This document shows, one piece after another, positions 1-44,428 of a DNA stretch of 64,000 nt. The position numbers were made by a program, and so were the translations under genes. Source of the stretch: Leucoraja ocellata. Taxonomy: Eukaryota. Location of the stretch: the NCBI GenBank assembly GCA_036785375.1, contig JAWMAR010000010.1, positions 6,448,001 to 6,512,000 of the forward strand, written 5' to 3'. The first letter of the stretch is position 1. Each line of letters starts with the position of its first letter. Under the pieces are notes generated by a model. The model worked only from the letters and a program-made list of their open reading frames with translations. It ran no database searches and was not told the DNA's origin.

Positions 1-132
1 AGAATTATTGTGGAGGATGTTTTGTCGCCTATGTTCGCTGCTTGTGGTCCATGGGTCAGAAAGTGAACGATCCAGTGACAGAGGGGGAAATGTCACTGGA
101 CCCCGTCTTCGGAAGTTTGAAGAAGAGTTTGT

Positions 133-336
133 GGCGGCACAGTGGAGCAACAGTGGAGTTGCTGCCTTACAGCGCCATGTTCCATCCTGACTATGCGTGC
201 TGTCAGTACGGAGTTTGTATGTTCTCCCTGTGACTGCGTGGGTTTCCTCCGATGTGCAGGATAGTGCTAATACCGGGTTCACTGGTCGGCGGGGACGCGA
301 TGGGCCGCAGGGCCTGTATCCACGCTATATCTCTAA
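133..336 (+). mobile_element. Degraded, internally deleted tRNA-derived SINE (V-SINE/HE1-like); copies on - at ~13641-13845, ~41780-41983, ~61156-61360
   Basis: tRNA-like head ggcggcacagtggagc..., core gtacggagtttgtatgttctccctgtgactgcgtgggtttcctccg, CR1-type tail gatgggccgcagggcctgtatccacgctatatctctaaa. Confidence 0.7.
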
Positions 337-660
337 AGCATAAGGTCTGGTTGGGACAGGCACATGTGTGACTGGATTTACACGGGATTAGTGATATGAG
401 TTTGATTGGAATTTGCTTTGTTAGTTTTTGGGTCAAAGTTTGTTAACACACCAAGACGCACATTTTTGTAATACCTCTGACAAACAGGCCCCGGGTTTGT
501 GTGATCCTTTATTTTAACCCGGCCACGGGTCCCACGCTCCCTTTAAACACTGGGGTTCCGTATACCCATAGTACCTGGGGCCGAAAGGCCTGTTTGCATG
601 TTCTATGATTCTAAAAGCAGGCACCAACTTGTCAACCTGAGCTCCTGTCTGTGCTGTTCT

Positions 661-872
661 GCCTGTGACCGGGAGGATTTTCTCCGGGTGCCCCGGTTTC
701 TACCCACATCCCAAGACCGTGCGGGTCTGTAGATCAATGGGCCTTTGTTTATTTCACCTAGTGTATAGCGACTGGATGAGTACATGGGATAAAATGGGAC
801 TCGTGTGAACGGGAGATCGATGGTGGACGTGGATTCTGTGAACCGAAGGAGTTTCCATGCTGTATCTCTAAA
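661..872 (+). mobile_element. 5'-truncated SINE of the same type; mirror at ~13106-13317 and copies in units B and C
   Basis: Core ttctccgggtgccccggtttctacccacatcccaagac and tail tttccatgctgtatctctaaa. Confidence 0.6.
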
Positions 873-2203
873 CCAAGATCAAGCGCTACGGTGATTGGCT
901 GGAGAATGGCGGGAAATGGACTGATATTTGTGCAAGATAACAGGTAACAGAGAAACATAAGTGGAGATGAGTCAAATGCTCGATGTGGCCATGGATCCAA
1001 TGGGCCGAATGGTCCTTTGGAAATGTTACAGGCAAGTCAGAACGTCATTGTATTAAAATAAAACATCAAATTAAAGCAAACCAAATAATTATTGTATAGC
1101 TGAATTTAATGACCACTTTACACGTTGTTCCATGTTGCTCTCCCATTCAAATATTTTGAGAGTTTTATACATATACACAGCATATTGAATTCAAGATTAA
1201 AGTTATGTATTGTATAAGTGAATTTAATTAGCATTTTCGATTTATCGCACTTCCATTAAAATTTACTTCGAAGTTTGTTAATATTTTAATTTAAGCAAAC
1301 TGCATTAATAATAAGATTGTCTTCATTACGTGTTAAATGCATTATTTGAGATTTATAAGCAGAGCACTACGAAGAAAGGGACTAGAAATAGATTAGTCAG
1401 GATCCAGGGGTTGCCACAGCAGGGAGGTTTGGACATGCTTCTGGAGTCAACGGGTCAGAGAATTGTACAGTGAAGAAATTGGGCCTTCGGACACACATGT
1501 CGATATGAACATCTTTGTCTATGTACATGCATCCCGTTGGCCTCAATTAGATCCATATCCTTCCAACGTGTAATAAGAGGGAACTGCTGATGCCGGTGTT
1601 TACCAAAGATAGACACGATGTGCTTGCGTAAGTCAGTGGATCAGGCAGCAACTCTGTAGGACGTGGATAGGTGACGTTTCATGCCCGGTCCCCTTCTAAC
1701 CAACTGGGAATTTGCAGCACTTTGTCCATCCTTCCAACTATTTCCCAATTAAGGGCCTGTTCATGCGTCTAAACGTCTATCGTACATGTTGGTGTATCTC
1801 ATTTCCACCACTTTGTTTCCTAACATAATCCTGATATCAAACCCTCTCGGTGTACAGAACCTTTCCTTTGAACTAGAAGTACTGCATTTTATTATATTAC
1901 ACAAATATTAAAGCGAGTCGGATAATTAGTATGATTGACAACCAAAGGTCGACAAAATCAGCCAGACCGCAAAAACAGGTGGGATCGGCGAACTTCATTG
2001 CGAGGCAGGTTATATTGCAGTCGGAACACTGGTCTGCTCAGCTTCCACGGATGGATCAGTCTTCACGCTTGCTGCGGACACAACAAGACCAATTAAAACA
2101 AGCCTCGGTAATTGTCCCACAAGACCATTCCTGGCATCTCCATTCACAGCCGTCATTTAAATATGTGAAGTGATTCGGACGGATATTTGAACGGAATTCC
2201 AGA

Positions 2204-2350
2204 NNNNNNNNNNNNNNNNNNNNNNNNNNNNNNNNNNNNNNNNNNNNNNNNNNNNNNNNNNNNNNNNNNNNNNNNNNNNNNNNNNNNNNNNNNNNNNNNN
2301 NNNNNNNNNNNNNNNNNNNNNNNNNNNNNNNNNNNNNNNNNNNNNNNNNN
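2204..2350. other. N-run (147 nt) at the 3' tail of the Rex/Babar LINE (minus-strand copy)
   Basis: Flanks are the near reverse complement of those around the N-runs at 11646, 39562 and 59105. Confidence 0.9.
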
Positions 2351-3178
2351 GGGAGATTCAGATGTCCAGAAGCCCCCAACCAACAAACGCACAGATTCAA
2401 AACGAACGCAGACAGAAAATACATAGAATACACTGTGGACACTACCTGAGAGCAATAAATACTTAAAAAGACCAATAATTAACAATTAAAAATTAAAAAT
2501 TGCAAAAATGTATCCCCCTACAGCCTAGCGGTCCGAATTATAAAATCTAATGGCTGCAGGGGTGAAGGATGTCCTGAACCGCTCCGTTCTGCAGGGCAGG
2601 GAGGGGAGCCGGTTGTTGTTCCGAGTGCTCTTTTGACTCTCCAGAATTACATGGAGGGGATGCCCGGGGTTTTTCAGGATGACCTGCACTTTGTGCCTCA
2701 TACGCCTCTCAAGCACATCCATCCCAGAGTCTACTCTCCCCTCCAGCACTGAGCTAGCTCGTTTAACCAGATTGACCAGCTTCTTGTTGTTTTTTTCACT
2801 AATGTTGTTGCCCCAGCAGACAACAGCGTCGAAAATGACACTTGCAACCACAGAGTTGTAAAACATGTGCAGCATATCACTACACACATTGAAGGATTTG
2901 AGCCTTCTGAGGAAAGAGAGTCTGCTCTGACCTTTTTTGTAGAGGGAGTCAGAGTTGATAGACCAGTCCAGTTTGTTATCAAGGTGCACTCCAAGGTATT
3001 TATATATCTGCACCACCTCAATGTCAGCCCCAGCAGCGTTGACCGGCTGAAGGGGGAGCTTGGACCTTCCAAAGTTAACCACCATCTCTTTAGTCTTAGT
3101 TGTGTTCAGGATGAGACAGTTCTCTTCACTCCAGGCACAAAAGGAACTGGTCAAGTTCCTGTATTCCTCCTCCTGTCA
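2351..3178 (-). mobile_element. 5'-truncated Rex1/Babar-clade non-LTR retrotransposon (RT C-terminus, DUF1891-like region, 3' UTR)
   Basis: ORF 2525-3154 contains LNTTKTKEMVVNF...YKYLGVHLDNKLDWS...KKGQSRLSFLRRLKSF, typical of Rex/Babar ORF2 C-termini. Confidence 0.85.
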
Positions 3179-3562
3179 GCGTTTGACAACATCATTTGAG
3201 GTGGACATCAATATGCGAAACAGGTGATTAACTTAACACGAGTCACGTATATTGGTCGATGTGTTCACAGTGAGGAGGATTGTCTGACCTGCAGCAAGGT
3301 ATTGGTTTATTATCGTCACCTTGACACAGATAGGAGGAAAAAAACTTTGTTTCGCGTGTCATCCAGATAAATTATTCCATAAACCCAAACCGTGCAGAAT
3401 ATAGTCTTACAGAGAAAGGGCAGAGGGCAAGGGCAGACTGGAGGATCGGGAATACATTCTTGTCTTTTGAGGGATTTCCCAAAGCGCCTGAGCGCGTAAG
3501 AAACTGTTCTTCCCTCTGTAGGTACATGATGCACCCGAGCCATGTATTGACAACGTGACAGG

Positions 3563-3800
3563 GGTACCATGGTGGCGCAGTTGTAGAGATGCTGCCTTGC
3601 AGCGGAGAGTCCCGGGTTCGATCCTGATTACGGATGCTGTCTGTGCGGAGTTTCCACGTGCTCCCCGTGACCGCATGGTTTTTGTCCCTCCCATAATCCC
3701 AAAGACTTGCGGGTTTGTAGGATAATTGTCCTCTGCAAACGCCCCCTATAGTGCAGGATAGAACTAATGCATGGATGATGATGGTTGGCGCGGCCTAGGA
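3563..3800 (+). mobile_element. tRNA-derived SINE with Pol III A and B boxes; mirror at ~10196-10433 (-)
   Basis: A box ggtggcgcagttg, B box gggttcgatcc, then the V-SINE-like core gctgtctgtgcggagtttccacgtgctccccgtgacc. Confidence 0.75.
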
Positions 3801-3875
3801 AGCCTCACAGTTTTCAATCACACCCCAAAGGTCATTGAGTTTATATCCCAGGCATAGAAACGCAACATTACGTAC

Positions 3876-3975
3876 CTGAGTTTGTCACGGTAGAAGATAA
3901 CACACATCACTAAAAGGACAATGGTTTTTAATCCGAGAGGGATCCACAGGATCAGAACCTTGTAACTCTGTGTGA
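3876..3975 (-). CDS. Transmembrane exon of a second, inverted copy of the Siglec-15-like receptor; its Ig exon would fall in or beyond the 200-N gap
   Basis: Reads as the exact reverse complement of 10021-10120 including splice sites; ORF 3818-4039(-) is identical to 9957-10178(+). Confidence 0.65.
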
Positions 3976-4429
3976 CTGAGGAGAGAGTGAGAGAGATCAG
4001 AGTGGTCACTTGGAAAGTGGAGCGATCGACAATGTACAAATGGTGTATGCTTCACTAAGATCACCTCCCATTCTATACACTCTGGAGAATACAGGTCTAA
4101 TCTGCTGGAGGAAATAACAGACTGCTGACACCGCTCAGGAAGTCAGGCAACTGTCGAAGGAAACACAAAGACGTAGTTTTGTCCGGGAATCCTTCCAGTT
4201 TTGAGGCAAGATCTCGATATGAATTGTCATTCGGCAATTTCCTTCCAGACATGCTACCTGGCCGATCGAGTTCCTCCAGTAGCTTTTTTTTCTGCTCGAG
4301 GTTCCCGTGCCTGCATTCTACAGGGTCTCCGGTCTAATCAATCTCCCCTGATCTTCAATCAACCTGCCTTTCTGGGAAACAGTGACGGATTCTTCACTGC
4401 ACTAATCGTGGCTTTATTGTAGTTAAGAA

Positions 4430-4840
4430 GAACAAAGTCCGACCCAGTACTGCAGGGGTCGTCTCGCTAGAACCTTATATAACTGCGGTAAAATATCTCA
4501 TCCCTTGAATATAACTCCTCTCTTGATAAAACCTGAACAACTATGGCCTTTCGCGACTCTTCCCCATCAGTACATCACCCTTCACTGACACGAGAACAAG
4601 CACAATATGGTCCTTTTGAACATCCACACCACCCGACCTCTGACCATTTAATAAACACTGTTGTTTTATGTTTAGTTCACCCGTGCGGATAATTTGACAA
4701 TTTGCCACATTTTATTCCACATAATGCTTCCACCCACTCATTCAGCTTGTCCACCTTCCCCGAATCTCCGCGTCCTCCTGCCCTCTCACAGTCCCACGGC
4801 ACTACCACCACCATCAGACCTGACAATTGCCCCACCTCAA
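4430..4840 (-). mobile_element. Old degraded CR1 RT fragment; mirror at ~9160-9570 (+)
   Basis: Remnants resembling CR1 RT (DKLNEW...KCGKLS) in ORF 4677-4922(-). Confidence 0.5.
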
Positions 4841-5138
4841 TCAACTCCCTGATGCAGACTGTGAATAGCTGAGACCAAGAACCAAACTGTGAAGTACCTC
4901 GCCAGCCGCAGACTCCCAACATGACAGAGATCCAGATATTTCATTCTACATGCTGCTCGATAACTGCTTCTCAATCCCTGACAGCGCGTTGTCTTAATGC
5001 CGCCTTCTCGCACCTGGTTCACCAAACTCCTGGCTGGGACCCAACCTAGATCCTTCTGAGAATCCAAACCTACCACAGCACCTTGCTCCCTCTCGGGCAT
5101 TCAACTCCTCACCTCGCCAATAGACTACAATACATTGA

Positions 5139-5338
5139 NNNNNNNNNNNNNNNNNNNNNNNNNNNNNNNNNNNNNNNNNNNNNNNNNNNNNNNNNNNNNN
5201 NNNNNNNNNNNNNNNNNNNNNNNNNNNNNNNNNNNNNNNNNNNNNNNNNNNNNNNNNNNNNNNNNNNNNNNNNNNNNNNNNNNNNNNNNNNNNNNNNNNN
5301 NNNNNNNNNNNNNNNNNNNNNNNNNNNNNNNNNNNNNN
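5139..5338. other. Assembly/scaffold gap (exactly 200 N)
   Basis: Round length and unrelated flanks; coincides with the end of the inverted arm. Confidence 0.9.
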
Positions 5339-6184
5339 AAATACGTTGTTTTGCAGACAACCCAGAACAATCATTGTCAAGTCTTCTAATGTTTTTGCAG
5401 ATTCCCCGCTTGAAAGGGATTTGATTTATCTACCCCGAAATGATGAACTGGATTCACTCAGACCAAACACTTCTTTTCCACCTTTTATTTTGGAAGATTG
5501 GTCTTTAGCAGTTTTAGTCTTTACCAGGTGAAAAATCTTTAGACACAAAGGCAAAAAATATACACATTACTGTAACTAAATATAAATAACAGAAAATTAC
5601 ATGTATCTAACATTCCAACTCATAGCAGCCATTTTGTTTTTTAAATAATTTTCACATTTCATTTAATGAAAAATACAGATAATGCCCACTACTGTTACCA
5701 ATTTGTTAGCTTAATATCATATGAATCTTTACTGTTTTTTAACACATTTTACCATATTTTTTAAAATGCAATTATTTAAACTAACACCACACATAGCATA
5801 TAAGTATTAGAGATTAGCTCACATTAGCCCTTAACCCCACAATGAAGCAGGATGTACTTTACATAGACAACAAACACTATCATCACCCTGTCATCTTGGT
5901 TAACAAACACCACCAATATTTCAAACTTTCTCAATCAACACGTTAGCCAGACAAGTTTCTCAGATATTAAAGGGTTAAACAGAGTCTCTGGGGCTGCAGT
6001 CTTCGGCTCAGTTCATTTAGAGTTCAGTCCTTACCGGCTGCCAATCAGGTCTGTAGAAAATCAGTCCTGCTTGCCTTTTCTGGCTATCGCCACAGTCTTT
6101 TCGGACAGTCCTTTTGATTTATTGTTCAAGTTTTGCCGCCCGCAAGTCTCTTCTGTCTTCTTCATTGGCTGCTGGTGCTGTGTG

Positions 6185-7219
6185 TAGGTATGTTACAAAA
6201 CCTACCTGACGCGTGCCTGAGAATCTGCCCCACCCCGTGTGCGTGATTTGCCGCTGTTTAGAGGGGGCGGGTTTAAAACGCGATTTTTACTAGGCTGTTG
6301 CAATCGAAAGTGTTCAGCCTAGTAAATCGTTAACGAAAAATCGCTGAAAGACCCCGTCGCAAAAGGTATTATTAGTTTTTATGGCCTTGTATAATAGTTA
6401 TAGTAGTTTAAAAATCACTCTCTAAACCCGCGAGCTCTCGCAGCCCCAGCGTTTTATAAAGCAAACAATTAAAGGTATGTACCTTATTTTTACATTAAAA
6501 TGGGATTCTTAAGAACCCTGTATATAAAGTTTTCTATAGCGAGTAGCTCATTTTGGGCTCTTTATATCCCGCAGTATTTTTCTGGGCACTTGAGGCACAA
6601 ATCCAGCGCAATGTGAACGTTCTAAACCAGCGCGTTCACAGGAACCCACTGGAAAGCTGATTTAAATTGACTGATTTACAGCAATTGAACACTAAATTCC
6701 TTCCATTTGGCCTATAAATTGATGTAAATGAGATTTTAAAATCATGTTTTATTGTGAATTATTTATGAATATTATTTGGACACTTGGGCTATTTAAAAAC
6801 GTTAATCATTTATTAAGAAATGGATAGATGTTTAGATCTAGTAATTGAAGTTTGAAATTAGCTACACTTGTGTAACTAACTAATTATATGCTTTAATTTC
6901 AGGTCATCCAAGTTAGATTATTTTATGTTTATTTCAGAATGGTTCAATCTACGATAACTGAAAATTTCATTCAGTTCTCTTAATTTTTAAGAAGGTTATG
7001 GGCTTTTGACTGTCCATGATCACAGCTTTTTTGTTATGTCCATAGAAAATCAATAGGGAACAAGATGCTAATTTCCGAGTATGAAAATGGCCATAACGTT
7101 TTAAATACTTGAGATATGAAAGTGAATTAGGTGTCAAATTAAACTTATTTTTATGCTTTACCTGATGGGATAAATTACAGACTTGATTTTAAAAATCTCA
7201 AAATGTTGTAACATTGCTA
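6185..7219. mobile_element. Non-autonomous DNA transposon (MITE-like, 1035 bp) with TAG...CTA termini, 14-bp imperfect TIRs and a 7-bp TSD
   Basis: Left end taggtatgttacaa (6185-6198); right end ttgtaacattgcta (7206-7219; reverse complement tagcaatgttacaa, 12/14 match). CTGTGTG flanks both sides (6178-6184, 7220-7226). AT-rich interior with no ORF in the track. Confidence 0.85.
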
Positions 7220-8290
7220 CTGTGTGCCCTTTTAACCCCCGGGCAGAACTCGGCCGTCTGGGGTTCTGTCCCCACTGTCTCGTGATTTCAATGTAGCATT
7301 TCTCTGCACCTGTTCTTTCATTTCAGTTTGATTTGACAATCATGTAGCGGACGTCACCTTGACAGTACACAAGTGTCGCCACGTTTTGGCGCCGACAGCT
7401 GCAAAGATTCACGGCAGTTCTCTCTACTGCCTGCTGCCGCTGGTGGCATCGGCCCCACCTACCCCTCACTGTCATTCTCGGCTGCCCTCCTCGCCCCCCG
7501 ACAGCCCAACTCACTCTCCGTCGACCCTCCACACTATCAGACGACCCTCCTCACTCTCCGACGGCCCACCTTCCTCTCGGCGGTTGCTCCCGGGTTCCTC
7601 TTCGTTCTTGCGGCGCGGGTCCAGTCGTTAGATCCGCGGTCGGCGAGTCGGTCCTACAGCAGGGCCAAGCCGGAGAACACTCGCAGCCGCGCTGCTGGAC
7701 GAGAACCATCGCCGTGTGGGGTCGGGGGGGGGGGGCTGAACGGCCAGGGTTCCTGCTCCTGATTCCTCTCCAGTTAATCCATCTGGACAGTGCGCTCCTG
7801 GAGTAGACGAGACGCCGGCCCTGGTCCACAGTCAAATACAGGTGGGCTGTGTAATCCGAGAAATAGCAAGATGGTGATCACCTTGTTGGAACTATTAATG
7901 TGTTGGAGAACAGTAGTGAAGGAGGTGTCGGTGCCCAATCCCCTGTGGGCGGGTCTCCCTCTCGGTGTAGAGTTCACCGCTTCACACATTGAATATTCCC
8001 CGTGGAGAATAGTGTTGGGTTCCGGGGAGGCGCGGGTTCGCTGTCGCTCACACTCGCTCTCAGGGCAGCGCCGAGGGAAAGCCGCGCTGTCAGAGGCGCC
8101 CAGTGACCCCTGATCCGGATCCGCCCTTGAATGTGTCCTGTCCCCTGCGCCCCCTGGCCCACCTTCCCTGGGACCATCACTGTCAGCTCCACACTGGGCA
8201 CCGCCTCCACCCACTCCCACAGGGAGAGGTCGGTACAAGACGATTCACCGACAGAACGCTGATACATTCCGGTGTCTGTCCTTCCCTCAG

Positions 8291-8704
8291 GTCCCGGCGG
8301 GAATGTCTCAGTGGTGAATGGGACTGAGTGGGGTTCGGCCACGTTACCATGTGTGTATCGGCAATCCCCGCTTTACCCCAGGGCCCTCACGGTCACATGG
8401 ATGAGGAAGGATCCCTACCGGCACATCGTCACGTTCAGACCACAAGCTGATGGATCCTGGGCGGCGGAGAACGGAGCAACTCGGTTCGAGCTGGTCGGGG
8501 ACCCAGACAAGGGAAACGCCGCAACCAGGATAAACAAGCTGTGTGTGGAGGACAGTGACGGCTACCTGTGTCTGGTGGAGTTCAGCAAAGAGAAAAACTA
8601 CGATCCGATAAACAACGTCATAGAAGAGTTCAAGAGCTTCGTACACCCCCCGTTCACCCATCAGTACCAGCGTGAGGTCCAGCTCCGGGTACGGATCACA
8701 CCCG
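8291..8704 (+). CDS. Ig V-set domain exon of a Siglec-15-like / CD33-family-like receptor
   Basis: Acceptor tgtccttccctcag| at 8290 and donor |gtaaga at 8705 give a 414-nt phase 1-1 exon. Motifs ATLPC (B strand), VTW (C strand), RFELVGDPDKGNA-x-x-RI-x-x-L-x-x-EDSDGYLCLVEF (D-F strands), EVQLRV (G strand). Confidence 0.8.
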
Positions 8705-10020
8705 GTAAGAAACCATCGCCACATTCTGCCGTGTAGAGCGAGGGTGCAGAGGGAGGGAGGAGAGCAGGAACAGGAAACCCTGTCTCTCAGGACTCAGTGG
8801 GCGCAGCCTCGCATCTAGAGGGTCAGATACAACTCCAGAGAAAAGTCAACCATAGTTGATCAATGTATTGGAGTCTATTGGCGAGGTGACGAGTTGAATG
8901 CCCGAGAGGGAACAAGGTGCTGTGGTAGGTTTGGATTCTCAGAAGGATCTAGGTTGGGTCCCAGCCAGGAGTTTGGGGAACCGGGTGCGAGAAGGCGGCA
9001 TTAAGGCAACGCACTGTCAGGGATTGAGAAGCTGTTATCGAGCAGAATGTAGAATGAAATATCTGGATCTCTGTCATGTTGAGAGTCTGCGGCTGGCGAG
9101 GTACTTCACAGATTGGTTCTTGGTCTCAGCTATCCACAGTCTGCATCAGGGAGTTGATTGAGGGGGGCAATTGTAAGGTCTGATGATGGTGGTAGTGCCG
9201 TGGGACTGTGAGAGGGCAGGAGGACGCGGAGATTCGGGGAAGGTGGACAAGCTGAATGAGTGGGTGGGAGCATAATGTGGAATAAAATGTGGCAAATTGT
9301 CAAATTATCCGCACGGGTGAACTAAACATAAAACAACAGTGTTTATTAAATGGTCAGAGATCGGGTGGTGTGGATGTTCAAAAGGACCATATTGTGCTTG
9401 TTCTCGTGTCAATGAAGGGTGATGTACTGATGGGGAAGAGTCGAGAAAGGCCATAGTTGTTCAGGTTTTATCAAGAGAGGAGTTATATTCAAGGGATGAA
9501 ATATTTTACCGCAGTTATATAAGGTTCTAATGAGAAGACCCCTGCAGTACTGGGTCGGACTTTGTTCTTCTTAACTACAATAAAGCCACGATTAGTGCAG
9601 TGAAGAATCCGTCACTGTTTCCCAGAAGGGCAGGTTGATTGAAGATCATGGGAGATTGATTAGACCGGAGACCCTGTAGAATGCAGGCACGGGAACCTTG
9701 AGCAGAAAAAAAAGCTACTGGAGGAACTCGATCGGCCAGGTAGCATGTCTGGAAGGAAATTGCCGAATGACAATTCATATCGAGATCTTGCCTCAAAACT
9801 GGAAGGATCACGGACAAAACGACGTCTTTGGATTTTCTTCGACAGTTGCCTGACTTCCTGAGCGCTGTCAGCAGCCTGTTATTTCCTCCAGCAGATTAGA
9901 CCTGTATTCTCCAGAGTGTATAGAATGGGAGGTGATCTTAGTGAAGCATACACCATTTGTACATTGTCGATCGCTCCACTTTCCAAGTGACCACTCTGAT
10001 CTCTCTCACTCTCTCCTCAG

Positions 10021-10120
10021 TCACACAGAGTTACAAGGTTCTGATCCTGTGGATCCCTCTCGGATTAAAAACCATTGTCCTTTTAGTGATGTGTGTTATC
10101 TTCTACCGTGACAAACTCAG
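10021..10120 (+). CDS. Transmembrane exon (with intramembrane Lys) of the Siglec-15-like receptor
   Basis: Strong pyrimidine acceptor ctctctcactctctcctcag| and donor |gtacgt. Phase-1 start is in frame with the V exon and gives VTQSYKVLILWIPLGLKTIVLLVMCVIFYRDKL. Confidence 0.75.
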
Positions 10121-10817
10121 GTACGTAATGTTGCGTTTCTATGCCTGGGATATAAACTCAATGACCTTTGGGGTGTGATTGAAAACTGTGAGGCTTCCTA
10201 GGCCGCGCCAACCATCATCATCCATGCATTAGTTCTATCCTGCACTATAGGGGGCGTTTGCAGAGGACAATTATCCTACAAACCCGCAAGTCTTTGGGAT
10301 TATGGGAGGGACAAAAACCATGCGGTCACGGGGAGCACGTGGAAACTCCGCACAGACAGCATCCGTAATCAGGATCGAACCCGGGACTCTCCGCTGCAAG
10401 GCAGCATCTCTACAACTGCGCCACCATGGTACCCCTGTCACGTTGTCAATACATGGCTCGGGTGCATCATGTACCTACAGAGGGAAGAACAGTTTCTTAC
10501 GCGCTCAGGCGCTTTGGGAAATCCCTCAAAAGACAAGAATGTATTCCCGATCCTCCAGTCTGCCCTTGCCCTCTGCCCTTTCTCTGTAAGACTATATTCT
10601 GCACGGTTTGGGTTTATGGAATAATTTATCTGGATGACACGCGAAACAAAGTTTTTTTCCTCCTATCTGTGTCAAGGTGACGATAATAAACCAATACCTT
10701 GCTGCAGGTCAGACAATCCTCCTCACTGTGAACACATCGACCAATATACGTGACTCGTGTTAAGTTAATCACCTGTTTCGCATATTGATGTCCACCTCAA
10801 ATGATGTTGTCAAACGC

Positions 10818-11645
10818 TGACAGGAGGAGGAATACAGGAACTTGACCAGTTCCTTTTGTGCCTGGAGTGAAGAGAACTGTCTCATCCTGAACACAACTAA
10901 GACTAAAGAGATGGTGGTTAACTTTGGAAGGTCCAAGCTCCCCCTTCAGCCGGTCAACGCTGCTGGGGCTGACATTGAGGTGGTGCAGATATATAAATAC
11001 CTTGGAGTGCACCTTGATAACAAACTGGACTGGTCTATCAACTCTGACTCCCTCTACAAAAAAGGTCAGAGCAGACTCTCTTTCCTCAGAAGGCTCAAAT
11101 CCTTCAATGTGTGTAGTGATATGCTGCACATGTTTTACAACTCTGTGGTTGCAAGTGTCATTTTCGACGCTGTTGTCTGCTGGGGCAACAACATTAGTGA
11201 AAAAAACAACAAGAAGCTGGTCAATCTGGTTAAACGAGCTAGCTCAGTGCTGGAGGGGAGAGTAGACTCTGGGATGGATGTGCTTGAGAGGCGTATGAGG
11301 CACAAAGTGCAGGTCATCCTGAAAAACCCCGGGCATCCCCTCCATGTCATTCTGGAGAGTCAAAAGAGCACTCGGAACAACAACCGGCCCCCCTCCCTGC
11401 CCTGCAGAACGGAGCAGTTCAGGAGATCCTTCACCCCTGCAGCCATTAGATTTTATAATTCGGACCGCTAGGCTGTAGGGGGATGCATTTTTGCAATTTT
11501 TAATTTTTAATTGTTAATTATTGGTCTTTTTAAGTATTTATTGCTCTCAGGTAGTGTCCACAGTGTATTCTATGTATTTTCTGTCTGCGTTCGTTTTGAA
11601 TCTGTGAGTTTGTTGGTTGGGGGCTTTTGGACATCTGAATTTCCC
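10818..11645 (+). mobile_element. 5'-truncated Rex1/Babar LINE (unit A copy)
   Basis: ORF 10842-11471 as for the mirror copy; 3' UTR ends tgaatttccc at the N-run. Confidence 0.85.
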
Positions 11646-11773
11646 NNNNNNNNNNNNNNNNNNNNNNNNNNNNNNNNNNNNNNNNNNNNNNNNNNNNNNN
11701 NNNNNNNNNNNNNNNNNNNNNNNNNNNNNNNNNNNNNNNNNNNNNNNNNNNNNNNNNNNNNNNNNNNNNNNNN
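11646..11773. other. N-run (128 nt) at the Rex/Babar 3' tail
   Basis: Flanked by tgaatttccc and tggagaattcc. Confidence 0.9.
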
Positions 11774-14584
11774 TGGAGAATTCCGTTCAAATATCCGTCC
11801 GAATCACTTCACATATTTAAATGACGACTGTGAATGGAGATGCCAGGAATGGTCTTTTGGGACAATTACTGAGGCTTGTTTTAATTGGTCTTGTTGTGTC
11901 CGCAGCAAGCGTGAAGACTGATCCATCCGAGGAAGCTGAGCAGACCAGTGTTCCGACTGCAATATAACCTGCCTCGCAATGAAGTCCGCCGATCCCACCT
12001 GCTTTTGCGGTCTGGCTGATTTTGTCGACCTTTGGTTGTCAATCATATTAATTATCCGACTCGCTTTTAATATTTGTGTAATATAATAAAATGCAGTACT
12101 TCTAGTTCAAAGGAAAGGTTCTGTACACCGAGAGGGTTTGATATCGGGAATATGCTAGTAAACAAAGTGGTGGAAATGAGATACACCAACATGTACGATA
12201 GACGTTTAGACGCATGAACAGGCACTTAATTGGGAAATAGTTGGAAGGATGGGCAAAGTGCTGCAAATTCCCAGTTGGTTAGAAGGGGATAGGGCATGAA
12301 GCGTCACCTATCCACGTCCTACAGAGTTGCTGCCTGATCCACTGACTTACGCAAGCACATCGTGTCTATCTTTGGTAAACACCGGCATCAGCAGTTCCCT
12401 CTTATTACAAGGTGGAAGGATATGGATCTAATTGAGGCCAACGGGATGCATGTACATAGACAAAGATGTTCATATCGACATGTGTGTCCGAAGGCCCAAT
12501 TTCTTCACGGTACAATTCTCTGACCCATTGACTCCAGAAGCATGTCCAAACCTCCCTGCTGTGGCAACCCCTGGAACCTGACTAATCTATTTCGAGTCCT
12601 TTGCTTTGTAGTGCTCTGCTTATAAATCTCAAATGATGCATTTAACACGTAGTGAAGACAGTCTTATTATTAATGCAGTTTGCTTAAATTAAAATATTAA
12701 CAACCTTCGAAGTAAATTTTAATGGAAGTGCGATAAATCGAAAATGCTAATTAAATTCACTTATACAATACATAACTTTAATCTTGAAATAAATATGCTG
12801 TGCATATGTATAAAACTCTCAATATATTTGAATGGGAGAGCAACATGGAACAACGTGTAAAGTGGTCATTAAATTCAGCTATACAATAATTATTTGGTTT
12901 GCTTTAATTTGATGTTTTATTTTAATACAATGACGTTCTGAATTGCTTGTAACATTTCCAAAGGACCATTCGGCCCATTGGAGCCATAGCCACATCGAGC
13001 ATTTGACTCATCTCCACTTATGTTTCTCTGTTACCTGTTATCTTGCACAAATCTCAGTCCATATCCCGCCATTCTTCAGCCAATCACCGTAGCGCTTGAT
13101 CTTGGTTTAGAGATACAGCATGGAAACTCCTTCGGTTCACAGAATCCACGTCCACCATCGATCTCCCGTTCACACGAGTCCCATGTTATCCCATGTACTC
13201 ATCCAGTCGCTATAAACTAAGTGAAATAGACAAAGGCCAATTGATCTACAGGCCCGCACGGTCTTGGGATGTGGGTAGAAGCCGGGTCTCCCGAAGAAAA
13301 TCCTCCCGGTCACAGGCAGAACAGCACAGACAGGAGCTCAGGTTGACAAGTTGATGCCTGCTTTTACAATCATGGAACATGCAAACAGGCCTTTCGGCCC
13401 CAGGTACCATGGGGATACGGAACCCCAGTGTTTAAAGGGAGCGTGGGACCCGTGGCCGGGTTAAAATAAAGGATCACACAAACCCGGGGCCTGTTTGTCA
13501 GAGGTATTACAAACATGCGCGTCTTGGTGTGTTAACAAACTTTGACCCAAAAACTAACAAAGCAAATTCCAATCTAACTCAAATCACTAATCCCGTGTAA
13601 ATCCAGTCACACATGTGCCTGTCCCAACCAGACTTTATGCTTTAGAGATATAGCGTGGATACAGGCCCTGCGGCCCATCACGTCCACGCCGACCAGTGAA
13701 CCCGGTATTAACACTACCCTGCACATCGAAGGAAACCCACGCAGTCACAGGGAGAACATACAAACTCCGTACTGACAGCACGCATAGACAGGATGGAACA
13801 TGGCGCTGTAAGGCAGCAACTCCACTGTTGCTCCACTGTGCCGCCACACACTCTTCTTCAAACTTCTGAAGATGGGTTCAGTGACATTTCCCCCTCTGTC
13901 ACTGGATCGTTCACTTTCTGTCCCATGGACCACAAGCAGCGAACATATGCGACAAAACATCCACCACAATAATTCTCAACACAGGCGTCCCACAAGGATG
14001 TATTGGTATTCCCCTACTATTCTCCCTATAGTCGCGGTTGTGCGGACAAACTCTGCTCTGGATCATCTACCGTTGTAAACCGTTGTAGGGGGACGATAAA
14101 CCGTTGTAGTGGGACGATGTCAAACAATGATGAGATGGTGTACAGGATGGAGATAGAGAGCGTAGTAAAACAAGCCCCCCCGCAATATGGACAACACAAA
14201 TGAGCGGAAGGTTTCCGACTCCACATGTCAGCTACCCACGTCGTCCACAGATGCTGCGTGAGCCGCTGGAAGTAGTTGAGGGCTTCCGGTTCCTTAGAGC
14301 GCATCGCCAATAATGTGGCCTGGACCAACCACACTGAAGCTACAGCCAAAAAGCTGATATTTTACTTCATCGGAGGCTGAAACAAGTACACCATGTCCGC
14401 AATAACAACCCACAGCTGTGGTATGAGCCTGGATGGTTCTGCTTGACATAATGCTGGAGGCTAATGCCATAGTGGTATTCAGGAGGCTTGTGGATAGGCA
14501 GGTGGGTATGCAGGCAATGGAGGGATATGAATTAAGAGCTGGCTGGTTAGAGTAGGTCTTGGCATCGTGTGCAGCACAAACATC

Positions 14585-14840
14585 TAAATCCCATTCTCCC
14601 GCCTTCTCCCCATAACCCATGACACTCGTACTAATTAGAATCTATCAATCTCCGCCTTAAATATATCAATTGAAATTCATCTAGAGGCTTTCTAGAGGTA
14701 CTTGCGTTTATTCTGATGCGAAGGCATCTGGTTCTAGTCTCTCCCACTAGCGGAAACATCCTCTCCACATCCACTCTATTCAAGTATTTCGCTATTCGGT
14801 CAGTCTCAATGAAGTACCCCCTCATCCTTCTAGACTTCCC
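14585..14840 (-). mobile_element. Degraded CR1 3' fragment
   Basis: ORF 14631-14825(-) has LNRVDVERMFPLVGETRTR, matching the CR1 ORF2 C-terminus. Confidence 0.65.
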
Positions 14841-15269
14841 GTTTCCTATTTACCCGCTGTTTTCAGATTATTGAACGATTGTCCCACATACTAAGGTTTA
14901 GTCCCGCGACTAAGGATTAGTCCCGATCTTACAACCTAGCTTTATGTGGGCATATTATCTCGAATTGTAATCCTACAATGCTCTAAAACTATATTCTGCG
15001 CTCTGGTATATTTCTCTCCGAACGACCCATTGCATTTGTATATGGTTTGGTTTTACTTGTTTTCGATGATTTCGTTTGACTGGATAGCACACAAACAAAA
15101 AAACTATTCACGGTGTCTCGGTAGACATTACAATAAAAAACCATATCAACATCTCAATGGCCATTGTTTCTCGACCCCAGTTCTCCTGCCAACCGCCACC
15201 ACGTTTCAGCTCAATCAAAGCCCCTTCCATACTGCCCGCCATTATACTCTACCACCATACTGTCCACTA

Positions 15270-15431
15270 GTCACTGCTATCCCCCGATCGGAGGTTGCAG
15301 GTGGTTGCCGGAGGTTGGTAGTGGAAGCAGGTAGGGAGACTGACAAAAACCTCCGGGAACCTCCGGGAACCGCACGGAAACCTTGGGTGGGGCGCAAAGT
15401 CTCCAGAGGTTTCCGTTCAGGTTTCCTAAGT
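15270..15431. mobile_element. Partial non-autonomous DNA transposon (MITE-like fragment, one end only)
   Basis: Internal repeats ggaggttg and aacctccggg and an end ...gtttccgttcaggtttcctaagt; no partner TIR seen, so family unassigned. Confidence 0.35.
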
Positions 15432-16250
15432 TTGAAAAGAGAAAATGATATATAGTCTTTAACATCTAATCTCGGAGCTGCCTGCGATCACTTACCGAGT
15501 ACATGTGTTCCGATGGCGGGGCCTATGTACTTAACATAGAGAAGCCGCGGTCTCAATTAAGAAGCGGACGATTCGCGAACGCGGAGCCGCGGAGTGTGTT
15601 TGTATCATCTCCGCGCGGCGGCGGGGGGGGGGGGGGGGAGGCTTTACACAGTGCCGTCCGCTATGGCAGTTTCCAGGCTCCGACCACGGGAGAAAAACGG
15701 ATGAATATTCATTGCACTTTAACGGCTGCCATTGGAGTGAGAAATGGCTGATGTTTATGTAGAAATTAATTGGTGTATGTGAACGTGAACTTGATCTAAT
15801 TTATCTATGGTAGTAACAGTGTTATTCTCATTAACATTAAGAAGAGGTTGAAATTTTCTGAATTGAAGTCCATGCAGGCGTAATGACCATGAGATGTTTT
15901 TCTTGTAGCCTCTGCCTGACCCTCCACTTGAACTTGATCTAACTCATCAATGGACTTAGCAAAACTTATCAGAAGACTTGGAATCTGATGAAGAATATTC
16001 AGATGAAGATCAGATGTAATGTAAACAAATAAATTGGGGAAATAAATGATTATATAACGTTTTATTTTAGTGTCGATCGTTTCACTGTTTAGTTGGTCAA
16101 ATTATTTAAACAATAAGTGAATTACGTATGATCATGGCATGCTGGTGAATGACAGTGCAACAGTCCACCCACTCATCCACACATACATATACACATCCAC
16201 ACACACATATCCATCCGTACGTGCACTTCCATGCATGCACACACATACAT

Positions 16251-16251
<1 letters not shown>

Positions 16252-16293
<42 letters not shown>
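16252..16293. repeat. (CA)n microsatellite; shorter variants at ~44388-44426 and ~62744-62771
   Basis: Direct reading. Confidence 0.95.
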
Positions 16294-16297
<4 letters not shown>

Positions 16298-16299
16298 GT

Positions 16300-16340
16300 G
16301 GGCCTGATGTGCCCCGCGGGCCATATTTTGGAGACTCCTG
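16300..16340 (-). mobile_element. hAT (Charlie-like) terminal fragment
   Basis: Reverse complement reads caggagtctccaaaatatggcccgcggg, a typical CAG-start hAT terminus with the ggcccgcggg subterminal motif. Confidence 0.55.
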
Positions 16341-16529
16341 CCTTACATGAACTAAACAAAAATGTAAAGAAGTACAAACATTGATGACTTTATTATTGTG
16401 ATAAGTATAGATCTATTTAAAACAATCTAATAACTTTCTAATGTACGGACAAAGTCTACCTTCCCAAGTGGCGTATCTTGTTCCGCTCCATGTCTGTGCC
16501 GCCGCTGCTGAAACTAGCTAACGTGGAGG

Positions 16530-17083
16530 GAGAGTGAGGTAGCGTCAATTACGTCAATACGTAATTGACGGTCGCTCTTCCTCCACTGGGCTCAAGACAC
16601 GCCCCCTTGTGAGGCAGATGTGATCGCTGCCTCCCCTGGAGCTTTGTCAATGCAGATTTATGTGAGACCAGCGAGCACAAATTTAATATCTTTATATGTG
16701 AAATACGTTACATGGACTATAGAAGGTAAGGACATGTAATGAAGGGGTTTACAAACATTACTTTTGTGACATGCATGGAGATGGTAACAGGCACACGCTT
16801 ATTGCCCGCGCTCCATGCAGTTTCTAAGGGGTAGCGCAATCAGTTTGCCGCTGCCTCACCTCCCATCTCTCCATGTATTTGCAGCGGAGCTGCGCAAATT
16901 TGGCGATTTTTACTATAAAAAAAGATTATATTAATATAGAAATGACATTTATAACAGTGGAAAAATCTTTAAATTTATTTTATTTTATTATTATTTTTCT
17001 TTACTTTACTTAACAGCTATTTTCATTGGGAGTATGACAAGTGAGGCTCTGCCTCCCTTGCCTCCCCTGTGGGCACGTCCCTG
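16530..17083 (-). mobile_element. hAT-like DNA transposon remnant
   Basis: Reverse-complement terminus cagggacgtgcccacaggggaggcaagggaggcagagcctca and recurrent gaggca/tgcctc subterminal motifs; the other end is not defined. Confidence 0.45.
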
Positions 17084-19964
17084 AAAACAAGAAAACACGC
17101 TTAGCTAGAGTAGAAAAAGTGAAATATGGGCCGGAATGAAATCTTTCAATAATCTCCAAGATACCGCCCTCTGCAAAGAGCGGTGTTCGCCATCTGCTCC
17201 AAGGAGCAGACGACTGGAGCTGTCCCTGTATAGTGATCCCCGTGACACAAAACCATCTCCTCCCCACCCTACTCCGGTGTCAGAGCGATGGGGATCATTT
17301 TAGCTTGTACCCTGTGTCTCTGTATATGCCCAGAGTACGGCTCACACACTTCCACATTGTTCCGGTTTAGTGTAAATTTGTCCCAGGCTATTTTTTAAAT
17401 GAACTTGAATCACCATCCGAGTTCAGTTGCTCGCCTCTGATGCCCATTCATCTCTCCCAGTGTATAATCGCCAGGCGTCTTCAGGCAATCGGTGACCCAG
17501 AGTCCGACAGGGGTGACCGGGCAGTGTGTCAGCCCTTTACGATCTCCTGCCACTTTCGGATTTGTTCGCTAAGTTCATACCGTTTTAACTCTGGACCCGT
17601 GTTCTAACAGACCCAGCCCGTGGAAGAGCTGCAGCGGATCATCGTGGGGGGACCGTGTGTCGTATCGACCAATAAAGCGGACATGACCTCTACGCTGGAA
17701 ATTCGGGACATGAGAGTTTGTGATTGCGCCAACTATCAATGTCAAGTTGCAGATAACTGGACCGTATGGGGTTTGGATATGCACATTGGAATGGAAGGGC
17801 GCATTTAAACGCTATATGATCAGAATCGGCCATCAGAATTAAAGGATTGTTGTACAGGTATTAGTAACCTTGCTATCAAGTTCAATTTCATTGTAATTTT
17901 CTCTTTCTAAGTTATTTAACTGCCGTTTGGTTCGGACTTTCCTGATATTAACCGTGTCTAAACCATTTTATTAACCCATTGAGAGCTCCGTTCCTCAATG
18001 GGAACAAAATCATCCACTAGGCGTTTGGGAAACACGGAATATTATTTGTTCTTCTGAAGCACTGGAATAATTGGGCAGCGTTTCCTGTTGCTTTCCGGGT
18101 AAAATGGGGTGAGGACTTTCTTTTACCGGGCTGGATCACTGTGTATGACTGCCATGCTTACTATAGAAATGGAGCGGGGGCAAGCATGATTTTCACGCCG
18201 GAAAGCATCCTAAAAGCGCTCTTTATATCCATTGCCCAGGAATAATCAGTGTAGTCGAAAATTGGGATCGTGTGACATCAATGTCCGTGTAAGTGAAGCA
18301 ACCCCAATTTCTAAATTCATCTTGAACAATGGCCCATGGCAGAGGGCGACAGGTCTGGTGTGAGATCCGAGACAGCAGACTGGTGCACTTCTGAATCAGA
18401 AGGGTTGTGGATTTTGATGGACAATAAATGACAGACTTGTCAGCCATGCACGCATACCAGTAAATGGATAACATAAACGGAGCACCAGAGTGTTGGGGTG
18501 CACACTGATGTGCGTCGCAAGTGTTAATGAACAGAAAATGATGGGCTTATACGAGTTCCCCAGATGGGGTTGTTTGGGGAACGGGGAAGACATACCGACT
18601 CTGAACGTTCTCAAATCCAAGAGATTTCTGATGTGAGGGGTGTCCAATGCGGAACGGTTTTAGGATGGGTCCACGTGCTCTATGAGTGTGAGAATACCAG
18701 ATGCAATCTCTTTATTGTTTACAATCCACAGAGCAAAGTTGATAGGGCAGACGCTGAGCTGTGCGTTAGTCGGAAATCCCCGCGAAAACAGCACAGACTC
18801 AAAGCAACCGACAACTGAGTGCGGGAATAGTTTTCAGGAGGGGAAAATATGAACTGTAGGAAGCGAGAGGCGAGGGGGGATGTACAACGGGATCTGAGGG
18901 ACCTTGTTCATCAGTCAATGAAAGTAAGCATGCAGGTACAACAGGCAGTGAAGAAAGCGAATGGCGCGTTGGTCTTCGTAACAAGAGAAGTTGAGTACAA
19001 TACTTAAATACTTCAACAATAAGAACAAACGTTTCCTGACATTTGTAGCGAACAGAATCTCTGTTTGATCGGACATGGGGGTAGAAGTGTCATCCTGTCA
19101 AAACTTTGGACTTTTGTGTTTTGGACTATATACTGGGTATCATGCCTGATGTTAAGGGTTTTAAGCGTACAGTACTAAGAATAAGAATAACGTTTTAATA
19201 AGACGAATAACCAAGTTATGCTTGCTTCTAGAACGCGAAGGTGAAGATGGAAGAATAGCTAAAGAATTCTGAATGCTGATATATCATGGATGCTATTTTT
19301 TGATTTTTGAAATATGTTAATGTTTTATTGCTACCTTTTCAAATATATTGCTACCTTTTTTAATAAATTTTATTAATTGCCTCGTTATATACTCAGAACA
19401 ATTAGGGACCGATATGTAGTAGTCATTTAGCTAAACTCAGTATGTTATAACTAGAATTAGTTACCTTTAACTTTTATCTGCCTGTGTGGGTGGGGTTTTT
19501 CACGGTTGGAGCGGTGTTTGCGGCTGGGAATCTGGCACAGACGTTATAGTAATTATAGTTTAGTTTAGTTTTAAGAAGCATGGGAAGAGGTCACAGTTTG
19601 AACCATGCACGAGTTCCACCATGCGCGAATTTGACAACGAGTAAGATCAAAATGTATTTAAACAAGAAGACATGGATGAATATCTACTGTTTTACTACTG
19701 CAATAAAGGAACTATTAATTAAGAGGCTGTGTTTGGGAGATTTATCATTCAACGGCATTAAATATATCGTGGAGCGCTCACCAATGCGTTTCGATTATCC
19801 CCTGAATCCCTGGCTTCAATCAAAGTGACTACAGTAAATATGACCACTCAGAAGAGCGTTTCTACTTCATTTTTCAACGGGGCCTACTAGAAACACCTGG
19901 AACGAAAAGGAAAATGGGTAGATTAGGTCAGTGTATGGGAACTGTAGCTCAAAGTCTCAAAAAA

Positions 19965-20100
19965 AACTAAAGATAGACACAAAAAGCTGAAAAAGGTCTC
20001 GACTCGAAACGCCACCCATTCCGTCTCTCCGGAGATGCTGCCTGTCCCTCTGAGTTATTCCAAATGTCTGTGTCTACCTTCGGTTTAAAACGGTATTTGC
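19965..20100 (+). mobile_element. Short Penelope-LTR-like repeat with a degenerate minimal hammerhead motif; absent from unit B
   Basis: ctgaaaaaggtctcgactcgaaacgccacccattccgtctctccggagatgctgcctgtccc; related, more decayed copies at ~1590-1700 and ~12280-12390. Confidence 0.45.
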
Positions 20101-20468
20101 AATTCTTCATACACACTCCACATCAATGATTTCATCGTATCGTGCGTTGTGACTGATATTTTGTCCGACCTTTCGACAGCTGCAACCTCGTGGAACATAT
20201 TTACATTTCGAAATATTATTAGCAAACCTACTTTACAGTTGGTTTGTTCCGTTCGTGATGAATTGGTACATGTGCAATGAACGACTACCCTCGTGATTGT
20301 TGTCGTATAACATCACACGGGAGCAAAATCCGTAATGAATGTCCACAGGGAGGTAATCTCAATAACTCGTTAATCTTTTCCTTGGCTTATAAATGTTCAG
20401 TGGTTTAACCTCCCACTATAACATCTGTAAGCTTTGTACTTCGTTTGCGAGGTCGCTGTGAAGGAGAA

Positions 20469-20538
20469 ATGGGTCGCCTGCAACACTTGCCGGTTGAATA
20501 TTACTATTACCCAATCCTGGCATCAATTGGGGTGCCGG
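20469..20538 (+). CDS. GPR139/GPR142-like GPCR, coding exon 1 (N-terminus and first half of TM1)
   Basis: ATG at 20469 gives MGRLQHLPVEYYYYPILASIGVP plus G, then donor |gtatgt (phase 1). YYPILAxIGVP is the TM1 signature of this family. Not shown in this frame in the ORF track. Confidence 0.9.
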
Positions 20539-20754
20539 GTATGTCACTTGACGGTTACATGTGGGATGGGCTGGACGACATTTGATTGGGAAACGGCAAC
20601 GATGAAAATAAAGTGAAAATACTGTGACAAAATGTGCTAAATGCTGAGTTGCACCATGGAACGGGGTTTGGGGAATAACCTGAATGTATTTATTTCATCG
20701 TTTGCCGTTTACTGGGACTGGTATAAAATTGTTCTTGTATTATTGTTTAGAGTC

Positions 20755-21090
20755 GTCGAGTCAAGAGTCAATAGTGTTTTATTGTCAAATGTCCCGGACG
20801 GGACAATGAAATTCTTAACTGCTGCTATACCTAACAGAATATGTGAATGTGTGATCATTGTATATAATGAGGAAGAAATAAAAAGTTCAATGACTAATAA
20901 ATATAGTGCACATAGCAAATAATAATATAGTATTTTGCTGTTCAGAGCTCACAGCTTATTCGTTGCGTTTAATAGCCTGATGGCCGTGGGTAAATAGCTG
21001 TTGCTAAACCTGGACGTTACAGTCTTCAGGCGCCTTTAACTTCTGCCTGATGGCAGTGGTGAGATAAGTGTGTGGCTAGGATGGTGTTTC
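20755..21090 (-). mobile_element. Old LINE (Rex/L2-type) 3' end inside the GPCR intron
   Basis: gagtcaagagtc tail repeats next to tttattgtc (reverse-strand AATAAA) and cttctgcctgatggcag-type ORF2-end remnants. Confidence 0.5.
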
Positions 21091-21295
21091 TCTGTTGATT
21101 CATTCACTGTTAGGTGGAATGTTTATTCGTGAGCGTAGTGTCAGGGATCGCATTCAAAACAAAGGAATCCCCGTCCATCACATCCATTTCACAATTTTAG
21201 GAAAGTAATCAAAATATTAATATACAGCCACCCATCACTCAACTGGAAGTTATTCTGTCCATATAATCACCATTGCTTCTTTCTTACTCCATTAG

Positions 21296-22206
21296 TGAAT
21301 CTACTGGCGATTGTGGTCCTGTCCCGAGGAAAGTGCGGTCTCTCCAAATGCATCACTCGTTATCTGGTGGCTATGGCGACGGCGGACCTCACGGTGATTG
21401 TCTGCGAAGTGATTTTAAATCGGATTGTAGTTCTTTATTGGCGGAACACAATCCTGTTCTACACTCCTGTGTGCAGGTGTATTCTCTTCCTGTCCGCAGC
21501 GGCCGTAGACTGTTCCGTGTGGTTCACGGTCGCTTTCACATTTGATAGGTTTGTGGCCATCTCCAAACCGAATCTGAGATCCAGATACTGCACCGAAAGA
21601 ACCGCGGCGGTGGTTATGGTGACCCTATGTGCCTTCTTCTGTTTACAGAACGTTCCCTGGCCTTTCGCTTATAATTCTTTCGACAGGTGGAATGGTTTAC
21701 TGTGGGGCTGCCGAATCCGATCGGACTTCTATTACCTGCCCGCATGGATCGCATTTTCTTGGATTGAGCCGCTGTTGACCCCAGTGATTCCATTCTGTTT
21801 GATTTTGTTCTTTAATGCGCACACGGCGAGACGTATTTTAATGGCCAATCGGGTCCGCAGGAGGCTCCGCGATCTCAGTCGTGGAGACCCGGAGACAGAA
21901 AGCCGTAAACGGTCAATAATTTTACTCTTTGCAATTTCCAGCAGCTTCATCCTGCTCTGGGTCACAACTGTATCTCATTTTGTTTACTATCAATGTGTCA
22001 ACGGATTTTGGGGGCGAGGTTTGTCAAACGCATTTGCAAAATTTGAAAAAATTGGAGTTCTGCTGCAGCTGCTGAACACGTGTACAAACACACTGATTTA
22101 CACCGTCACCCAGGGGAAGTTCAGAGAGCAGCTCCTTCACGCACTTCAATGGCCCGTCGCGTTAATTGGAAAGTTAGTGAAACCTATCAAATGGTGTTTA
22201 AAATGA
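21296..22206 (+). CDS. Probable G-protein-coupled receptor 139-like (class A 7TM), coding exon 2; spliced protein 326 aa, intact
   Basis: Acceptor ttgcttctttcttactccattag| at 21295; the G+TG junction gives GVPVNLLAIVVLSRGKCGLSKCITRYLVAMATADL. TM3 FTFDRFVAI, ECL2 Cys, TM7 NTCTNTLIY; 70+911=981 nt. Confidence 0.93.
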
Positions 22207-24800: not shown

Positions 24801-24919
24801 GCATTCTCTCTCCCTCTCTCCATCTCTCCCCCACCTAAGTCGCAGTTTATTCCAAATCATCTTCTTCAGTCTCATAGTCTACAAGTCGTACAAACCTAAG
24901 AAACTTTTTTACATATCTT

Positions 24920-25610
24920 AGAAACACAAAAACATAGAACAATAGGTGCAGGTGTAGGCGATTCGGCTCCGTCAGCCAATATGATGACTGCAGATCATCT
25001 AAAATCAGTACCCCGTTCCTGATTTTTACACATATCCTAGATTCCTATTGCTCTAAGAGCACAATCTCTTTTGAAAACTTCGAGTGAATTGACCTCCACT
25101 CCCTGTGGCAGATAATTCCACAGGATCACAACTAACTGGATGAAAATATTTGTCCTCATCCCGGTCCTAAGTGGGCTCTCCTTATTCTAAAATTGGGACC
25201 TCTAGTTTTGGACTTCATCAACATCGGGAACATTTTACATGCATGCAACCTGTCCAATCATTTAACAAGGTTATATAGTTCTATAAGATCGCCTTCCATC
25301 CTTGTAATCTCCAGGAAATACAAGCCCAGTTCACCCATTATTTTGTCATATGTCAGTCCCGCCATACCCGGAATTGACCCCACAGCCACTTGCCCCTGTA
25401 CTCATCCTCTCGCAATGAAGGCCAACATGCCATTAGATTTCATCACTGCCTGCTGTACATGCACGCTCACGTTCAATGACGGATGGACAAGCACACCCAG
25501 GTTTTGTTGCACCTCCACTTTTCAAAATCTGACAACATAACGATAGTAACCTCGTCCAAATCCTTAATATATATTGTAAATAACTGGGTCCCAGCACCAG
25601 TACCCCACTA
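24920..25610 (-). mobile_element. Old degraded CR1 3' fragment, repeated in each triplication unit and in unit B
   Basis: catagaa tail next to aataggtgcagg. The homologue in unit B translates as [15 protein letters not shown] (ORF 55022-55279). Confidence 0.75.
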
Positions 25611-28476: not shown

Positions 28477-28551
28477 AATATACGTGACCCATGTTAAGTT
28501 AATCACCTGTTTCGCATATTGATGTCCACCTCAAATGATGTTGTCAAACGC

Positions 28552-44386: not shown

Positions 44387-44428
<42 letters not shown>

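Follow-up and report, generated by a model that had tools for sequence, protein, structure and literature searches.

Last coding exons of a likely activating Siglec-15-related receptor in the skate Leucoraja ocellata and its shark and ray family

A stretch of 64,000 nucleotides from Leucoraja ocellata (the window) was analyzed. Judged by its sequence, the receptor gene in the window is the back half of a member of a large shark-and-ray family of Siglec-15-related receptors. The reading that we prefer, and consider reasonably probable, is that a likely activating receptor of this kind has its last three coding exons in the window. These encode a second V domain (D2), a transmembrane (TM) helix with a Lys, and a short tail. 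The leader and first V domain (D1) were likely lost in an upstream gap. In the proposed model, D1 would be the lectin, D2 a spacer, and DAP12 or DAP10 the signaling partner. The main interest lies in the family and not in this locus, where the copy is incomplete in the assembly.

RESULTS AND DISCUSSION

Exons of the receptor gene

The receptor features of the window are as follows.

8291..8704, forward strand: D2 V-set exon, encoding the second (membrane-proximal) domain with a 31-residue F-G segment (Pfam V-set, D2 profile, D2 clade, AlphaFold model, reads of organism A).
10021..10120, forward strand: TM exon with a central Lys (PLGLK) (in-frame splice, run X9 joints into 10022, identity to P0001).
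11906..11921, forward strand: last coding exon, encoding the short tail KRED-stop without a Tyr motif (pattern search, 12 reads from 10120, open spliced product).
3876..3975, reverse strand: identical copy of the TM exon, in an inverted duplication ending at the gap (0 differences in 100 positions).
2056..2071, reverse strand: the last exon, repeated within the inverted arm (sequence search).
5139..5338, no strand: 200-N gap, where the absent leader and D1 exons likely belong (no leader or D1 match in the window).

The V-set exon contained 414 nt with ag/gt boundaries in phase 1-1. It matched Pfam V-set (E=3.2e-9) and carried the motif YLCLVEF. The TM exon contained 100 nt, also with ag/gt boundaries. 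The 8704/10021 join is in frame and reads VLILWIPLGLKTIVLLVMCVIFY, with a best 19-residue hydropathy of 2.45. In the joined translation, the V domain is directly followed by a hydrophobic helix that has a Lys at its center. The tail exon closes the frame with KRED-stop, and the spliced product is open up to that stop. Splice sites and frame are intact, and the TM and tail residues are identical to those of P0001 (38/38). No Ig exon was found between the V and TM exons by tblastn with 38 relatives as queries, and the V-V-TM subfamily has no C2 exon there. The preliminary description was thus right that a phase 1-1 V-set exon splices in frame to a TM exon with no C2 exon between them. It overlooked the tail exon and the absence of a leader and first V exon from the window.

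The AlphaFold model of D2 has an ordinary V fold (pLDDT 86; about 55 in the F-G loop). Upstream of the D2 exon, 7550-8250 on the reverse strand looks by eye like an old LINE reverse-transcriptase remnant, with no Pfam match. Repeat scans of 5339-8290 were uninformative.

The V-set exon encodes the second domain of a V-V-TM family

A search with the V exon gave 38 proteins among 217 candidates, all from skates and rays by name. When the front domain of one relative served as the query, 27 of 107 candidates came up, six of them new. The working family set was therefore 44 proteins (38 + 6). The nearest relatives over D2 are Leucoraja LOC129695295 (P0001), with 84% identity, and Amblyraja LOC116971356 (P0005), with 81%. 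Both have the TM and architecture of the window gene's family. The window copy differs from them in being without the 5' half and in having private Trp and Cys changes.

The usual build of the relatives is leader-V1-V2-TM, and it is the second V domain to which the window exon aligns. It scored 201 bits against the D2 profile vs 34 bits against the D1 profile. It carries the WMRKDPYRHIVTFR and YLCL motifs, lies at the site before the TM exon, and falls in the D2 clade, as expected of a D2 domain.

The family also shuffles its domains. There are D1-only forms (P0042, P0044) and double-D2 models (P0002-P0004, P0007). One single-D2 model, P0034, is without D1 or a D1 remnant and has no leader.

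The relatives in RefSeq carry automatic names only (uncharacterized, Siglec-15, sialoadhesin-like). We found no description of a V-V-TM family in the literature searched, which covered few subscription papers. The chondrichthyan family is apparently undescribed, at least in that literature, although its proteins are already in RefSeq under those automatic names. The preliminary description had proposed a multigene family from the duplicated TM exon. The family itself was found by the protein searches; the duplicate belongs to a local segmental duplication and is weak evidence when taken alone.

Splicing in a relative

No RNA run contained the exact window exon; the best share of words was 0.24. 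Four runs of a related organism (organism A) were mapped at 85% likeness, and the mapped reads mix paralogues. Run X9 gave 108 mapped reads, with the main depth on the V and TM exons. In this run, 19 reads extend upstream of the D2 exon into sequence that, translated by eye, matches how D1 ends in P0005 and P0006. The V exon is joined to the TM exon by 3 + 2 reads (from two separate tables), and 12 reads go from 10120 into the tail exon. A further 10 reads leave at 8684 for another exon, by eye like the long-tail form. Runs X1, X13 and X7 gave 1, 13 and 3 records, respectively, with no joints listed. These reads show D1-D2-TM-tail splicing in relatives and not in the copy of the window. The V-to-TM join, proposed earlier as an RNA-seq check at 8704/10021, is seen in reads of organism A.

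Duplications and neighboring sequence

The inverted duplication pairs 2351-5138 with 11645-8860 (2788 nt, 98.5%), and a further inverted match pairs 1-2199 with 13976-11778 (96.6%). The inverted arm stops at the 200-N gap, 156 nt short of the expected D2 exon start. The tail exon occurs again from 39915 and from 59422, in both cases with no TM exon. Segmental duplication units were seen at 10743-28842, 38659-58578, 58212-64000 and, inverted, 1-5138, with about 94-98% identity, and each has a receptor tail exon. Each of the four copies has an N run at the matching position (2204, 11646, 39562, 59105). At 23790-39017, a unit of about 5 kb occurs three times with 99.5-99.7% identity and contains inverted LINE reverse-transcriptase fragments. 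This triple repeat is either very recent or an assembly effect.

Two further gene-like sequences were noted in the window. The first, at 17290-17810 on the forward strand, is a leader and V-type Ig exon broken by a frameshift and by stops, with a weak match to Pfam Ig_3 (E=0.04). It is unrelated to the D1 and D2 profiles and has copies at 46161-46761 and 63707-64000 (about 95-97% identical). The second, at 21139-22206 on the forward strand, is a single-exon rhodopsin-family GPCR ORF (Pfam 7tm_1, E=1e-19). A second GPCR copy near 50390-51365 is split across two frames.

The missing 5' half

Leader and D1 exons were not found in the 64-kb window by tblastn with relatives. A 28-nt D1-end motif was absent from the window with 3 mismatches allowed. 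Leader and D1 profiles were blank against its six frames, with a best leader score of 3.9 bits.

These results bear on a reading in which the family assignment stands and the window copy is a 5'-truncated, decaying product of segmental duplication that makes no receptor. Most of the window consists of duplicated blocks: the tail exon occurs in it four times, the TM exon twice and D2 once. The adjoining V-type gene near 17290-17810 is broken. The window D2 has a Trp where all 82 matched family domains have Gly, and a Cys at a site where none of 50 family domains has one. Decay is possible because of these two odd substitutions at otherwise conserved sites. Against it, the frame is open, the splice sites are intact, and the TM and tail match P0001 at every residue. 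Only 2952 nt separate the gap from the D2 exon, so the 5' exons may just be unassembled. Round gaps such as 200 N often mark joins of unknown length. The leader and D1 of the window gene were probably lost at this assembly gap, about 3 kb upstream. We judge it fairly probable that the gene is intact, with decay a substantial but clearly smaller chance. The full reading of a truncated copy that makes no receptor is a serious minority view, at about that same lower level.

The Leu of YLCLVEF is the norm for D2

The preliminary description took the gene for a single-V activating receptor that had lost the Siglec Arg and so recognizes a non-sialic ligand. The Leu in YLCLVEF is there as described. 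That the receptor lost the Arg and so switched ligand is not supported: the exon is D2, and 45 of the 46 D2-type domains have Leu after the F-strand Cys (44 proteins; one domain is cut short). D1-type domains have Arg at this place in 27 of 39 cases, another residue in 11, and one is unscored. P0001 and P0005, the two closest Lys-bearing relatives, have the Arg in D1. The label of a Siglec-15-like receptor that lost its Arg was misregistered because the exon is the second V domain.

Several observations do favor a single-V receptor. The window has one V exon only, Siglec-15 is the best non-antibody PDB match of that exon, the family shuffles domains, and Arg-less Siglecs are known in primates (PMC6288428). 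Besides the D2 norm, they are opposed by the relative's reads that splice D1 onto the D2 exon, by the leader exon not found in the window, and by P0034, the one single-D2 model without a D1 remnant, which lacks a leader. This reading is very improbable, and the claim of a recent Arg loss for the window exon falls away.

Siglec-12/XII is a useful comparison. It has two tandem V domains, as the present family does. It also resembles this family in having a V domain without the Arg (PMC6288428). It differs in being CD33-related with a recent primate Arg loss, whereas in the present family an Arg-less D2 is the old norm.

A batoid subgroup (P0030, P0031, P0032, P0038 and P0036) has lost the D1 Arg and changed the D1 F-G region while keeping D2, and three of its members keep the TM Lys. 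For recognition of a non-sialic ligand, these proteins are more promising candidates than the window exon.

Relation to Siglec-15

The best non-antibody PDB match of the V exon was Siglec-15 (7ZOZ, E=1.1e-6), with CLVEF aligned to CRVEF. A family profile built from 25 relatives matched Siglec-15 with E=4.6e-22 through D1 alone; CD33 matched with 7e-7. Siglec-15 Trp44, Cys64, Cys95, Cys104 and Cys142-Arg143 were aligned in this match. In Siglec-15, C64-C142, C95-C104, R143, W44, Y87 and Y154 are described as structural or glycan-contact residues (PMC10264397). The 14 D1 rows of the alignment have both extra Cys in 14, the Trp in 11, the Arg in 9 and Phe at 154 in 8; Tyr87 is present in none (0/14). 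The window D2 is without the A-strand Trp44, C95 and C104 and has Leu in place of Arg143.

The family thus resembles human Siglec-15 (7ZOZ) in the D1 of its relatives, with W44, C64-C142, C95-C104 and mostly R143, in the TM Lys, which the window gene has, and in having two Ig domains. It differs in its V-V-TM build, which is not the Siglec-15 type of a V-set then one C2-set domain. It is also multigene, with inhibitory-type partners. The window gene further differs in a tail of few residues. By the V-C2 test, the window gene is not a Siglec-15, and the V domain encoded in the window would not be the lectin domain.

Profile search over 1.84 billion proteins extended the family to the sharks Heptranchias, Mustelus, Heterodontus and Chiloscyllium; names were looked up for 30 of the 150 listed matches. 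Among the matches listed, a sister V-V-C2(-TM) subfamily was seen in rays, in a shark and in Callorhinchus; lungfish, gar and salamanders had Siglec-15-type V domains in tandem. The tandem forms (P0045, P0086, P0202, P0092, P0069, P0093 and P0120) come from lungfish, gar, serrasalmid fishes and salamanders. Lungfish have up to seven tandem Siglec-15-type V domains, and the salamander forms end in Tyr motifs. There were few bony-vertebrate Siglec-15 rows for comparison because the lungfish Siglec-15 search gave 4 matches of 864 candidates. Zebrafish Siglec-15 is reported to have bound glycans poorly (PMC7226832).

The domain tree contained 66 domains over 129 columns, and many of its forks are weak. 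The window falls in the D2 clade (13 rows, 100/99). This clade is sister to the V2 domains of the V-V-C2 subfamily (19 rows, 99/98), and the joint group joins bony-vertebrate Siglec-15 domains at 95/87. Those V2 domains, including the holocephalan one, have Arg in 0 of 19 rows (Leu 13, His 5, Cys 1), and the second domain was putatively already Arg-less before the holocephalan/elasmobranch split. The D1 rows (14, 96/96) have no placed position. CD22/Siglec-12-like shark and ray domains fall apart from the family. Holding the 52 Siglec-15-like rows together, with four long rows dropped, was not rejected (p-AU 0.51), which is no proof of a clade. The relationship to Siglec-15 noticed earlier is supported by the PDB match, the family profile and the tree. 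The phylogeny places the domain in a clade where Leu is normal, an outcome that the preliminary description had named as refuting it, though this clade is Siglec-15-related. The family TM profile scored lungfish Siglec-15 at no more than 6 bits, so the TM homology to Siglec-15 rests on comparison by eye.

Fold comparison was generic. Many V domains were tied in their match to the D2 model: Siglec-15 reached Z 13.6 (rmsd 2.6, 112 aligned), and the top row had Z 13.8. Foldseek ranked Siglec-15 37th, and the fold searches give a generic V-set with no single family. Skate MDIRs (modular domain immune-type receptors) resemble the present family in being multigene activating and inhibitory Ig receptors and differ from it in their CD300/pIgR/TREM-like type. 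None of MDIR, CD300, TREM, PILR or NKp30 was among the PDB matches listed for the family profile. An origin in another tandem-V group (pIgR/CD300/MDIR, TIM, NKp30-like), with the Siglec-15 likeness being generic V-set, would fit the tied fold scores, pIgR as second PDB match (by summed weak domains) and a tree that included no MDIR, CD300, TREM, PILR or named NKp30 row, but it is the least probable reading of all, given the single-domain match to Siglec-15 with its aligned Trp, Cys and Arg positions and the grouping of D2 with Siglec-15 V domains.

Paired receptor forms

The TM Lys pointed out earlier is present in the window gene and in 22 of the 44 proteins. A long tail with Tyr motifs was found in 13 of the 44, both features in none, and 9 proteins are partial or have neither. 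In 4 of 4 chosen pairs from the same species, the ectodomains of Lys and Tyr-motif forms were 73-86% identical over about 250-275 residues. Because of this similarity, the family looks like paired (on/off) receptors, which is a likely interpretation. In Siglec-5/14 and Siglec-11/16 too, ectodomains that resemble each other are combined either with a DAP12-type Lys helix or with a Tyr-motif tail (PMC6288428). The present family differs from these CD33-related pairs in being built from Siglec-15-type domains, and CD33 scores far lower. The Lys is required for DAP10/12 binding in Siglec-15 (PMC7226832, PMC6941304), and by analogy the family Lys is a putative DAP10/12-binding residue. In its predicted protein, the window gene resembles a paired, DAP12-type activating Siglec.

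In the preferred reading, D1 would act as the lectin-type domain and bind a sialylated glycan via the F-strand Arg where it is kept. D2 would stand in place of the C2 domain as a spacer and perhaps as a second contact. Signaling would run through an ITAM, with the TM Lys paired to the Asp of DAP12 or DAP10. The activating form may counter inhibitory partners, as in Siglec-5/14 and Siglec-11/16. Counting against this reading are the absence of leader and D1 from the window, the D1 domains without Arg (11/39), the lack of Tyr87 and the origin of the reads in another organism. The Trp and Cys substitutions of the window D2, the poor glycan binding of zebrafish Siglec-15, the unplaced D1 rows of the tree, the Siglec-15 clade that was no more than not rejected and the low TM profile score of lungfish Siglec-15 also count against it.

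Variable F-G loop of D2

In the 25-row alignment, mean pairwise identity was highest in the D2 core (75%), lower in D1 (59%) and the TM (58%), and lowest in the D2 F-G segment (33%). Across 51 domains, the length of this segment varies from 8 to 31 residues. The window D2 has 31, a length common to three skate relatives. Such a loop, variable while the core is conserved, may serve as a second binding site or may be no more than a tolerant linker. A bolder account, which we consider rather unlikely, is that chondrichthyans turned Siglec-15 into a large undescribed tandem-V paired system. D1 would read sialic acid and repeatedly drop its Arg. The 8-31-residue F-G loop of D2, germline-encoded and CDR3-like, would be a second, pathogen-facing site, and the window would have the longest loop seen.

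Significance

The sources consulted present Siglec-15 as a conserved activating Siglec of V-C2 build and describe paired Siglecs in the CD33-related group of primates. If the present interpretation is true, sharks, rays and a chimaera would have reached paired Siglecs by an independent and much older route, through an expanded activating and inhibitory family derived from Siglec-15. The family supplies named candidates for sialic-acid self-recognition and DAP12 signaling in cartilaginous fish.
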